A stretch of DNA of 61,137 nt from Escherichia Stx1-converting recombinant phage HUN/2013, in sequence record KJ909655.1. One strand, given 5' to 3'. The position numbers are program-made. How positions within the stretch are numbered: the first letter of the stretch is position 1; each line of letters begins with the position of its first letter. This document shows, in pieces, positions 6,001-9,000 of this stretch.

Positions 6001-9000
6001 ACAGGATATCTTAAATGAAGAGTATAGCAACACTGGTTGTGTGTGCAATCTCCGGGATTGCCTGTGTAAATTTATCTGCACATGCAGCAGAAGGAGAGCA
6101 TACAATTTCTCTGGGGTATGCGCACTTTCAGTTTCCGGGACTGAAGGATTTTGTAAAGGATGCGACTGCTCATAACAGGGAGACTTTCAGTCATTTCGTC
6201 AACAGAAACTACTTTTCTTCATTGGGCGAATATACAGATGGTCGGGTCAGTGGATATGAAGGCAAGGATAAAAATCCACAGGGCATTAATATCAGGTATC
6301 GCTACGAGATAACGGATGATTTTGGCGTTATCACCTCTTTTACATGGACGCGTTCTCTCACTAACTCACAGACATTTATTGATGTGCAGTCAGCCGATCA
6401 TACCAGGAAGATTAAGAATCCGGCAGCTTCTGCCAGAACGGATATCAGGGCGAATTACTGGAGTCTGTTAGCGGGGCCTTCATGGCGGGTTAATCAGTAC
6501 ATGAGTTTATATGCGATGGCAGGGATGGGCGTTGCTAAAGTTAGCGCTGACCTGAAAATTAAGGACAATATTAACAGTAGTGGCGGATTTTCTGAAAGCA
6601 ACAGCACGAAAAAAACCTCCCTTGCGTGGGCTGCAGGTGCACAGTTTAACCTGAATGAGAGTGTTACACTGGATGTGGCTTACGAAGGTTCCGGCTCTGG
6701 CGACTGGCGCACGAGTGGCGTTACTGCTGGCATTGGCCTGAAATTCTGACCTGTATCCGGTAACCGTTTACTACCCGCTGTGATGGCGGGTTTTTTATTG
6801 CCCGTACAGGGCAAAAACCGTAAATTATGCGTGGGTGCCTTTCGGCTGATGGCTGGAGGGTGAACCTGAAGGCCTGATGTGGAAAGGCCCCGAGTCAACT
6901 TAACGTTAACCCGAGGCCCTAACACTTCGTACCTTAAGCAAGTAGAAGGTTAGCGCCTCTCTGTAAAAGGAGTCAAGCGCTATGTCGCAAAAATCGCTTA
7001 TCACCGTCACAATTTGCATGACGGTTATCTTCACCATCTGGATGTTGCACGGTTCACTGTGTGAGTTCCGGCTGAATTTGTGGGGAGCGGAGTTTGCGGC
7101 GTTCTTACAGTGTAAGCAGTAGGAAAACCGCGACGGGGACGAGAGTCCCCGTCAACTGGTTGCTGAGGTTCAGCCGATATGGCACCCGTTTCAGGTGAGA
7201 GAATGAACGATAAAATTCTCTGGTATATGCAGCGTGTTGTGAGAAATTCCCGCAACCCTGAATTTATGAATGAAGTTAAAGACGCCTGCCTTAAAAAGCA
7301 GGCGTTTTGTTTTGAGGCACCTGATGGCTTTTTGGTGCTGCGTTCTGTGCTCAGTGCTGATGGTATCCCTTATGTTCTGGTGTTGCTGGGCGTGTGTACG
7401 GGGAGTAACAGCGTTGAGCGTTACCTGCCGGAGGTGAAGACATTAACCCATCTGGCTGGCGGACGCTGGGCTGAGTTCCATACGGCAAGGCGGGGATTTA
7501 TCCGGCTGGGAAAACGACTGGGCTTTGAGCGAATGCCGGATGATGAGGATGGCTTCATGGTGTTCAGGATAGCGGTCTGACTGCTACAGTTTTCATCATT
7601 GTGTTTAAACCAACATTGTAATTCACATTCTGACCCTGCTCCGGCAGGGTTTTTTGTTATCCAGGGGGCCATTATGGGTGGAAGTAAAGGCGGTGGTGAT
7701 ACCAAAGTAAAACCAACAGCAGCGCAAATAGCACAGGAAGAAGTGGCCTGGAAAGGGTGGCAGGATTACAAAAATATCCTCCGCCCGGCTGAAGATAACT
7801 TCATGGAAAAGGTCGATGACCTGAACAGTGAGCAGCAGTACGACAATATTGCTGGCACCACAAATCTGGGGTATCAGAAACAGTTTGGCGAAGCACGGAA
7901 GGAGCTTGCGGGTAATCTTGCTCAGTCCGGCGTTGACCCATCCAGTGGTCGTTTTAATGCGGTAATGAATGCGAACCAGAGTGACCAGGTAACCGGGCAG
8001 ATTGACACAACCACACGGGGGCAGGTATCGCAGGCAGATAAGTATGTTGCCGGGCTACAGGATGTTGCTGCTCTCGGTTCTGGTCAGAAGGCGGATGCGT
8101 TACAGAGTTTTAACTCTCTGGCAGACAGCAGTCTGGCAAAAGCTAAATCGGATGCACAGGCGGCGTTTACGAAACAGCAGGGGCGAGCCTCTCTTGTTGG
8201 CGCTGGTCTGGGTGCGGCAGGTGCATATGCGATGCATAAGGCTGGCGGTAGCGGAGGAAGTGGCGGTGCTAAAACACCTGGCACCGGCGCTAATGCCATT
8301 CAGCATCAGGCTCAGAACTGGAGACTGTAATTATGGAGTATGGCAAATACGAAACTCTCGCAAGGGCTGGTTATTCAGGAGCAGACCGCCCACAGGGTGA
8401 CTGGCAGACGTCAGCAGCGCTGACACGCCAACAATACGACGACTGGCGAACCAGATATTTGCCCCGCGTGGCAAGGCTGGCTGACCTTGGGGAGAACAAC
8501 AGTCTGATGAATGCACAGCTTGCACGGGTGGGAGGCCTTGCCACTTCCAGTCTCCGTACAGCGCAGATGGCGCAGGATAACCAGATGGCGAGATACGGGG
8601 TAAACCGCCCGGATAATCCCGACAGTAATACGCTGGGGTTACGTAATGCCCTGGCAATTGCTGGCGCGAAAAATGGTATCCGTGAAGCCGAACAGGATCG
8701 CCAGATGAATATTCTGACGGGGGCTTCTGCACCGGCAAGACAGAAACTGAGTGTTGGCGGCCAACTGGTGGCAGCGTAAGGGGGCAATATGGGATACGGT
8801 TTACTGGATATTGCAAATCAGTCGCGGCGTGAGGCATTACAGGGAATAAGTGACGCAGACAGACGACGTGAAGAAATTGAGGCTGCGAACAAACAGATGG
8901 CGGCGCAACAGAAAGCGCAGAACAAGCAGAATATCGGTACGGGCATTGGTACGGGGGCGGCTATTGGCGCATCCGTTGGTGGTCCTGTTGGTGCTGTTGC

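Follow-up and report, generated by a model that had tools for sequence, protein, structure and literature searches.

What is the short open reading frame (ORF) that follows lom in Shiga toxin (Stx)-converting phages, and what is the RNA encoded opposite its leader? We address these questions in Escherichia Stx1-converting recombinant phage HUN/2013 (KJ909655.1), a stretch of 61,137 nucleotides that is hereafter called the window and to which all coordinates refer. A preliminary description of the window, made from the sequence alone, had placed a divergent, second type I toxin gene of the hok family downstream of lom. We find that this gene probably forms, with an RNA transcribed from the opposite strand, a hok/sok-type toxin–antitoxin pair in which the precursor of 24B_1 would be the Sok-type RNA and would act on the stability or folding of the toxin mRNA (probability about 0.7). 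In the literature on phage phi24B, 24B_1 is described as a microRNA-like regulator that acts in trans (Nejman-Falenczyk et al. 2015, PMC4426718; Bloch et al. 2023, PMC10732415).

An antisense RNA at the site of 24B_1

The toxin gene and the elements on the opposite strand are arranged as follows.

6982..7122, plus strand: coding sequence of the hok-like toxin (ATG start, 46 amino acids; RefSeq WP_000078907.1; peptide 72_1589 of the Hok catalogue preprint)
6966..6972, plus strand: ribosome-binding site (RBS) AAAGGAG of the hok-like ORF, read in the sequence, 9 nt upstream of the ORF
6947..6976, minus strand: promoter of the antisense (Sok-like, 24B_1) RNA, with the −35 box TTGACT (6976..6971), an 18-nt spacer and the −10 box TAACCT (6952..6947)
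6883..6940, minus strand: predicted Sok-like antisense RNA of ~58 nt with putative ends, comprising a ~20-nt tail, a 16-bp hairpin (6919..6886) and UUU
6889..6908, minus strand: published 20-nt 24B_1 RNA, UAACGUUAAGUUGACUCGGG, with an exact and single match in the window
6858..6937, minus strand: published 80-nt precursor of 24B_1, placed by the oligonucleotides of Table S2 (PMC10732415)

The preliminary description had pointed to the strand opposite ~6900–6990 as the place where a Sok-like antisense RNA might be found, and a search of the minus strand revealed both a promoter and a hairpin-forming RNA there. This promoter is the one published for 24B_1: the p24B_1 boxes TTGACT (6976..6971) and CGCTAACCT (6955..6947) are those of the antisense promoter described here (PMC4426718). 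Across 18 loci, the sequence GCTAACCT hardly varies, and it also occurs in sokW, at the homologous position, as the −10 box; mutating that box in sokW abolished the antitoxin activity (PMC8621323).

The antisense RNA has a predicted folding energy of −27.3 kcal/mol (z-score −4.3). In all 14 distinct homologs (14/14), its hairpin is more stable than its sense-strand counterpart, with means of −21.7 and −12.9 kcal/mol, respectively, because the sense strand has C–A mismatches where the antisense RNA has G–U pairs. Among lineages, the inner stem of the hairpin varies in sequence while its pairing is retained, and these sequence comparisons point to selection acting on the antisense transcript. 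Every occurrence of the hok ORF, those in Salmonella P2-like prophages included, is accompanied by the conserved promoter and hairpin.

The published 20-mer, for which the 24B_1 literature reports 2223 identical strand-specific reads, comprises the loop of this hairpin, flanked by the end of its 5′ arm and by most of its 3′ arm. It was described at phi24B coordinates 45711-45692 (PMC4426718), and its sequence is also given in Table S1 of the later work, in which the precursor was found to bind Hfq in vitro with a Kd of 25 nM (PMC10732415). The phi24B RNA is identical in sequence and position to the minus-strand RNA of the window, which we interpret as a piece of a Sok-type, cis-antisense RNA. 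The match of the antisense promoter and the ~58-nt hairpin RNA to the 24B_1 precursor may be a new link. The word “hok” is absent from both 24B_1 papers (PMC4426718, PMC10732415), and “toxin-antitoxin” is absent from the 2023 paper, the sole one searched for that term (PMC10732415). A literature search returned no paper linking 24B_1 to hok or sok, and a 2025 review of phage small RNAs likewise contains no such link; the only paper found with both “24B_1” and “Sok” is a mini-review that places them in separate classes.

The published 24B_1 constructs

Primer mapping places the constructs used to study 24B_1 on the hok locus. The Delta-24B_1 deletion corresponds to window positions 6781..6971 and removes the lom terminator's 3′ half, the putative hok promoter, the whole leader, the antisense gene together with its −10 box, and the hok RBS except for its last base. 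The complementing or “overproducing” clone, pUC18_24B1, has according to its primers a 566-bp insert, 6670..7235, which holds the whole locus including the toxin ORF; the insert of the complementing plasmid is given as 189 nt in the 2023 paper (PMC10732415). According to the 24B_1 papers, fewer cells survive infection with the deletion phage, and the level of adenosine triphosphate (ATP) is lower in the presence of the clone or the prophage. It is also stated in that work that isopropyl β-D-1-thiogalactopyranoside slowed the growth of the host bacteria.

The published survival and ATP phenotypes fit a membrane toxin locus. Because the constructs delete or carry hok elements, these phenotypes cannot be assigned to the 20-mer or to any other single component, and, given that hok regulatory sequence and the toxin ORF were deleted or supplied, the conclusions drawn on lysogeny control and host energy metabolism in Stx phages may need re-examination. 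We lean, by a little over even odds, toward the view that 24B_1, published as the first phage “microRNA” of physiological relevance, is the stable hairpin fragment of a Sok-type antitoxin from an overlooked, mok-less hok locus, and that the lysogeny, survival and ATP phenotypes would arise at least partly from removing or over-dosing a toxin–antitoxin module.

The toxin gene

Translation of 6982..7122 on the plus strand gives exactly the peptide that the preliminary description had quoted for a 46-codon ORF, and its assignment to the Hok/Gef family stood when the comparison suggested there was run. The Pfam family HOK_GEF (PF01848) matches with 33.2 bits, above the gathering cut-off of 22 (E = 4e-8), in an alignment that spans residues 8–44 of the peptide and positions 6–42 of the 42-position profile; PHROG 251, “MokW-like host killing,” matches with E = 2.8e-24. 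The quoted Hok motif is present as S25-L-C-E-F-R30 ... E37-F-A-A-F-L-Q-C44, and within it L26-C27-E28 and E37 are conserved throughout the subfamily. The proposed single membrane helix corresponds to a hydrophobic N-terminal stretch, residues 6–22, in which the 17-residue Kyte–Doolittle mean reaches 1.9.

The described resemblance to HokA is also borne out. The NCBIfam HokA equivalog model (NF007290) scores 38.4 bits and the generic NCBIfam Hok model 22.7 bits, which is under the respective cut-offs of 89 and 73, and the BLASTP identity of the peptide is 45% to HokA of strain K-12 and 37%, over 35 residues, to HokW. By these sequence scores, HokA is the closest named relative of the peptide, yet the peptide is not HokA itself, because its score lies far under the equivalog cut-off.

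In a protein search, 56 clusters were obtained; they derive from E. coli, Shigella and Salmonella, are nearly all of exactly 46 amino acids and all bear the NCBI name Hok/Gef family protein. Loci of this 46-residue subfamily were additionally found in E. albertii and Citrobacter. The C-terminal motif GAEFAAFLQCK and the GSLCE motif are nearly invariant in the subfamily. Among 15 distinct homologous ORFs, the median ratio of nonsynonymous to synonymous substitution rates (dN/dS) is 0.24, and the ratio is below 1 in 102 of the 102 informative pairs; as judged from these alignments, the ORF is under purifying selection. We consider it almost certain that ORF 6982..7122 is a genuine toxin gene of the Hok family.

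Neither the toxin gene nor its family assignment nor its toxicity is new. The preliminary description had called the gene unannotated, which applies to the original records of 933W (AF125520) and phi24B (HM208303), where nothing is annotated between lom and the next ORF. It does not apply to RefSeq, where the Prokaryotic Genome Annotation Pipeline places WP_000078907.1, “Hok/Gef family protein,” at the coordinates of the ORF, nor to phages annotated with Pharokka, in which the ORF is labelled “MokW-like host killing.” The exact peptide is included as 72_1589, from a high-abundance cluster, in a 2025-26 preprint on Hok diversity (Escalera-Maurer et al., bioRxiv 10.1101/2025.08.07.668861). Cluster 72 of that catalogue contains the peptides 72_1589 and 72_1621, the former being identical in amino-acid sequence to the peptide of the window. 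It was cloned there under an arabinose-inducible promoter; 42 of the 45 tested homologs were toxic, and 72_1589 is outside the three named non-toxic exceptions (bioRxiv 10.1101/2025.08.07.668861). By design, the catalogue is concerned with the Hok coding sequence only and leaves Sok, Mok and the mRNA ends undefined, and its text does not mention 24B_1, lom or Stx phages (bioRxiv 10.1101/2025.08.07.668861). The supplements of a ciprofloxacin RNA-seq study of EDL933 hold no entry for the hok-like gene.

The toxin gene in itself thus adds nothing new, and the added value lies in the unrecognized identity of the Sok position with 24B_1, together with the mok-less architecture. Stx phages of the 933W/Sp5/phi24B type have not a single hok locus but two, of which the second lies exactly beneath 24B_1. 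Two literatures that have so far been unconnected meet at this locus, namely that on hok toxins and that on the 24B_1 “phage microRNA” model, which comprises several papers.

Ends, leader and fold of the toxin mRNA

The following elements were assigned to the sense transcript.

6798..6826, plus strand: putative promoter of the hok-like mRNA, with the −35 box TTGCCC (6798..6803), a 17-nt spacer and the −10 box TAAATT (6821..6826)
6833..6981, plus strand: structured 5′ leader (Rfam RF01794)
6833..6849, plus strand: tac-like 5′ end of the hok-like mRNA, GGGUGCC (6833..6839) and CGGCUGA (6843..6849)
6882..6891, plus strand: candidate ucb-like box GAAAGGCCCC, alternative partner of the 5′ end after removal of the 3′ end
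6983..7099, plus strand: long-range helix sequestering the start codon (helix 8), in which UGUCGCAAAAAUCGCU (6983..6998) pairs with AGCGGAGUUUGCGGCG (7084..7099; GAEFAA codons)
7131..7154, plus strand: hairpin of the 3′ untranslated region (helix 16), a likely stopping point of 3′ trimming
7170..7187, plus strand: fbi-like 3′ element, UCAGCCG (7170..7176) and GGCACCC (7181..7187), complementary to the 5′ end

Among 20 diverse loci, similarity extends from a TAnAnT box just 5′ of GGGTGCC to the position directly after GGCACCC. Because the limits of homology coincide with these two sequences, the conserved unit, a module of ~355 nt (6833..7187), is the transcript. GGGTGCC is kept in 18 of the 20 loci, as is GGCACCC (18/20), and the TAnAnT hexamer is found at an equal distance from GGGTGCC in most of them. 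The putative hok promoter and the T-run that belongs to the lom terminator (hairpin 6773..6791) overlap. The promoter assignments on both strands rest on conservation, homology with sokW and the published BPROM call. Two copies depart from the pattern at the 5′ end, L063, where it is mutated to GGACACC, and L092, which lacks GGGTGCC; both keep an intact 46-residue ORF, and copies of this type may be decaying or deregulated variants.

The 356-nt RNA 6833..7188 folds with −155.4 kcal/mol, compared with −116.2 ± 5.9 kcal/mol for shuffled sequences (z-score −6.6; 0 of 100 shuffles fold as well). In both the minimum-energy and the centroid fold, 6833..6839 pairs with 7181..7187 and 6843..6849 with 7170..7176, forming a 7-bp helix with a 7-bp extension. 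A leader with the architecture of hok-type mRNAs had been proposed at ~6840–6980, and this proposal was upheld, with a module that extends slightly further (6833..7187) and a likely promoter at 6798..6826. The Rfam family RF01794 matches 6833..6995 on the plus strand with 35.6 bits (E = 3e-6 in a search of 801 nt), with the full length of the model aligned and model position 1 at 6833. RF01794, which bears the name “sok,” models the hok-sense leader, because it matches the hokW locus on the coding strand (113.5 bits).

A consensus structure was derived with RNAalifold from the 20 aligned loci and scored on the same alignment. In this structure, 97% of the cells are paired, and 13 pairs show double changes, whereas shuffles give 6.1 ± 1.6 and slid controls no more than 7. 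The consensus retains the terminal helix, the hairpin with the RBS in its loop, the start-codon helix and the hairpin of the 3′ untranslated region. The loop that holds the RBS (6966..6972) belongs to the conserved hairpin UAGCGC/GCGCUA (helix 7). Helix 8 consists of 14 pairs with 98.9% of the cells paired, all of its variation being one-sided with pairing kept, and is also found in the minimum-energy fold. Helix 16 shows compensatory double changes at four pairs, from GC to AU in 8 sequences, from AU to CG or GC in 7, and at two further pairs in single sequences.

In the fold of the 3′-shortened RNA (6833..7158), the 5′ sequence GGG(U)GCCUUUC pairs with 6882..6891. In 15 of the 20 aligned loci, this ucb-like helix consists of ten standard pairs, and a U–A to C–G double change occurs in the Salmonella-type copies L095 and L098. 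In silico, the mean unpaired probability of the RBS and start codon rises from 0.32 to 0.52 after the 3′ shortening. From these models we infer a refolding of the 5′ end that would fit the tac/ucb/fbi logic of hok mRNAs.

Comparison with known hok systems

The window contains one further hok locus.

19725..20106, minus strand: canonical hokW-sokW locus, with the hok coding sequence at 19782..19937 and an Rfam leader match of 113.5 bits

The preliminary description had distinguished the lom-proximal gene from this canonical hok, and the two are indeed separate, hokW-sokW lying on the minus strand. The possibility that the lom-proximal locus is itself hokW-sokW was rejected, as the published primers match from 20106 on the minus strand. 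The paper on hokW-sokW mentions no second hok (Takada et al. 2021, PMC8621323). Like hokW-sokW of Sakai prophage 5 (PMC8621323), the lom-proximal locus is carried by the same phage and encodes a small membrane peptide toxin of the same Pfam and PHROG families; the two share the 5′ GGGUGC and 3′ GCACCC ends and the antisense TAACCT −10 box at the homologous position of the leader. Hfq provides another parallel, the activity of sokW being partly dependent on Hfq and RNase III and the 24B_1 precursor binding Hfq. However, the toxins share only 37% identity over 35 residues, the RF01794 match of the leader reaches 113.5 bits in hokW and 35.6 bits at the lom-proximal locus, and hokW has an in-frame upstream AUG (mokW) within the region targeted by sokW, which the lom-proximal locus lacks. 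The mokW AUG, contained in CCAUGCUG, lies in the frame of hokW; because the frame is shared, MokW is an N-terminally extended HokW, unlike the out-of-frame overlapping ORF of R1. Furthermore, hokW-sokW is an experimentally established toxin–antitoxin pair, whereas the lom-proximal pair is a putative one.

With hokA-sokA of E. coli K-12, the locus shares 45% identity of the toxin, the pattern WM..SLCE....E.AAFL.CK, the best NCBIfam model and the GGGTGC ... GCACCC ends. It differs from hokA in its score against the equivalog model (38.4 versus a cut-off of 89) and in its placement in a separate 60%-identity cluster of the Hok catalogue (72 versus 93); moreover, in K-12 a mokA is annotated and IS150 interrupts hokA. 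Transfer of annotation from the K-12 hokA leader, rebuilt across IS150, was attempted and rejected, the alignment being too poor (48% identity).

The hok/mok/sok (parB) system of plasmid R1, established by the Gerdes laboratory and covered in reviews, has a stable folded toxin mRNA with 5′–3′ pairing, a 3′ hairpin ~30–35 nt before the end, and a cis-antisense RNA of ~60 nt whose promoter overlaps the region of the toxin RBS, and in these respects the lom-proximal locus is alike. Of the R1-type characters, a cis-antisense RNA from a promoter inside the leader and complementary 5′ and 3′ ends were found, and mok was not. Because there is no mok frame, the lom-proximal locus cannot have the translational coupling blocked by Sok in R1. 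By analogy with hok/sok of R1 and with hokW-sokW, the antisense RNA would function as an antitoxin.

Proposed mechanism and alternative explanations

In the mechanism that we propose, the full-length mRNA would be locked through 5′–3′ pairing and would undergo neither translation nor binding by the antisense RNA. A slow trimming of the 3′ end to the hairpin 7131..7154 would release the 5′ end, which, once freed, would refold onto GAAAGGCCCC (6882..6891) and open the RBS and the start codon. The ~58-nt Sok-like RNA (6940..6883) would pair with the leader, leading to decay of the mRNA or to blocked activation. On loss of this short-lived antisense RNA, the peptide would be made and inserted into the inner membrane, with collapse of the membrane potential and of ATP. 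If true, this would mean that control of a hok toxin by an antisense RNA does not require a mok leader frame, and that such a locus is present in most Stx phages of the 933W/Sp5 type and in many other enterobacterial prophages. The locus is a natural test case for the control of hok mRNA without mok.

Several observations weigh against such a pair. An ORF that starts upstream at ATG, GTG or TTG and overlaps hok in any frame is absent from the window and from 10 of the 19 other aligned loci (11/20). The boundary of the antisense RNA lies 26 nt upstream of the hok RBS. A scan for consensus promoters listed none on either strand of the locus, the hok promoter being missed because it matches 8 of 12 consensus positions and the antisense promoter because its −10 box matches 3 of 6. 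The RF01794 score of the leader (35.6 bits) is under the gathering score of 59, and there is no match at the gathering threshold. The terminal 5′–3′ helix is without support from covariation because it is invariant, and a duplex test of its extension gave no signal (−14.4 kcal/mol for cognate and −14.2 kcal/mol for non-cognate combinations). The gain in accessibility on truncation, from 0.32 to 0.52, is modest. Finally, the published reverse transcription–polymerase chain reaction (RT-PCR), performed with random hexamers and not strand-specific, gave no product in uninduced lysogens and yielded one only 80 min after mitomycin C; a steady supply of antitoxin in lysogens is unsupported by these data.

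The lack of mok has a direct bearing on the mode of action. A conserved mok was rejected on the basis of an all-frame scan of the window and 19 homologs, which found no conserved frame. In the loci that have an upstream overlapping ORF, its start position varies and its end is at +83, and an in-frame upstream extension of hok occurs in none of the 20 loci. With no conserved mok, the antisense RNA must act via the stability or folding of the mRNA and not by blocking a coupled leader ORF. A subfamily of hok loci without a conserved mok reading frame may be new. The E. coli-type copies contain two short leader ORFs inside the antisense target, one from ATG (6877..6903, 8 codons) and one from GTG (6879..6953, 24 codons), with a GAAGG box upstream. 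Neither was accepted as a conserved element, their start codons being absent in the Salmonella P2-type copies; the leader ORFs of 6877..6953 might still serve as a lineage-specific substitute for mok.

The toxin gene could be real and the antisense RNA nevertheless act mainly in trans, as a 20-nt regulator of d_ant and sdhB that promotes lysogeny, with an overlap of the hok leader that is incidental or secondary. The authors of 24B_1 reported complementation of the deletion phenotypes in trans, altered cI, cII and cIII expression, and a weak in vitro pairing of the 20-mer with sdhB mRNA. However, deletion 6781..6971 and clone 6670..7235 alter the whole hok locus, so that the phenotypes are not assignable to the 20-mer, and less than 10% of the 20-mer bound sdhB mRNA. 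Furthermore, the 20-mer is a hairpin arm, as expected of a stable decay fragment, and the promoter and hairpin are conserved alongside the hok ORF everywhere, including the Salmonella P2-like prophages, which makes a mainly trans-acting RNA an unlikely explanation. We give still less credence to a hok-type toxin governed by mRNA folding and 3′ processing alone, with no working antitoxin and an antisense signal that is noise or a decay product. The missing mok, the weak −10 box, an antisense RNA that does not overlap the RBS and the lack of antisense product in uninduced lysogens would all agree with this, but the −10 box hardly varies and is the same as the validated box of sokW, the stability of the hairpin is strand-asymmetric in 14 of the 14 distinct homologs, and the 20-mer is represented by 2223 identical strand-specific reads.

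Degenerate-looking copies (L063 with its mutated 5′ end, L092 without GGGTGCC) and the inactivation of K-12 hokA by IS150 could be taken to indicate a decaying hok remnant whose expression has ceased and which hitch-hikes in the phage. Such a remnant is improbable, a shade more so than control by folding alone, given that the 46-residue ORF is intact across genera with a dN/dS of ~0.24, that the module boundaries are sharp and that the peptide has been reported to be toxic. A chance open frame with a superficial resemblance to Hok, to which the shortness of the ORF and the NCBIfam scores under the curated cut-offs might point, is refuted by the Pfam and PHROG matches, the 56 clusters with Hok/Gef names, the purifying selection and the hok-type RNA context, and has a negligible probability.

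Phages and genomic contexts of the locus

Phage 933W, VT2-Sakai/Sp5 and many other Stx phages and prophages of enterohemorrhagic E. coli share 100% identity with the window over a segment of 501 bases around the hok-like gene. Because of this identity, the window is identified as an Stx2 phage genome of the 933W/Sp5 type, in which the locus, a moron, lies where the late region ends. The same segment is matched in 1675 of 5426 complete E. coli genomes, at up to 8 places per genome and with at least 80% of its length in 417 of them, as well as in 197 phage records.

The module occurs in unrelated contexts: the gene before it is lom in Stx phages, whereas one Salmonella prophage has a DUF1353 tail gene in that place and a P2-like prophage has ogr, at the prophage end. 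The hok-like module behaves as an autonomous moron. In the Salmonella P2-like prophage loci L095 and L096, it occupies the extreme end of the prophage, after ogr and beside ihfA/pheT; in the Salmonella lambdoid prophage loci L092–L094, it is likewise at the extreme end, after the DUF1353 tail gene and beside a cation-efflux gene and pfk. These positions suggest repeated capture of the hok module at prophage–chromosome junctions. Assemblies under the labels Xanthomonas pisi (an 857-bp contig), a Planococcaceae metagenome-assembled genome and Vagococcus sp. (L005, L006 and L008) also encode Hok peptides with 76–100% identity to that of the window, most likely because E. coli or Salmonella DNA contaminates them.

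Neighboring genes and other RNA elements

The ORF downstream of the hok-like gene (L0129 in 933W; 7179..7580, plus strand) has an annotated ATG at 7179 that overlaps the GGCACCC 3′ box of the hok mRNA. PHROG 610 (124 positions) aligns end to end with the L0129 protein from an internal methionine at 7203, where an RBS, AGGTGAG, is found, and the true start of L0129 is probably 7203. Within the annotated L0129 ORF, 7282..7313 forms a GC-rich hairpin followed by a T-run in either direction, resembling a bidirectional terminator; it could end read-through from the hok module, or the annotation of L0129 could need a second look. Other Rfam matches above the gathering score, unrelated to hok, are STnc100 (176.7 bits), isrK and C4 antisense RNA with adjoining a1b1 targets, the lambda cIII thermoregulator and sRNA-Xcc1, with coordinates 45207..45416, 40390..40588, 31122..31180 and 22728..22816.

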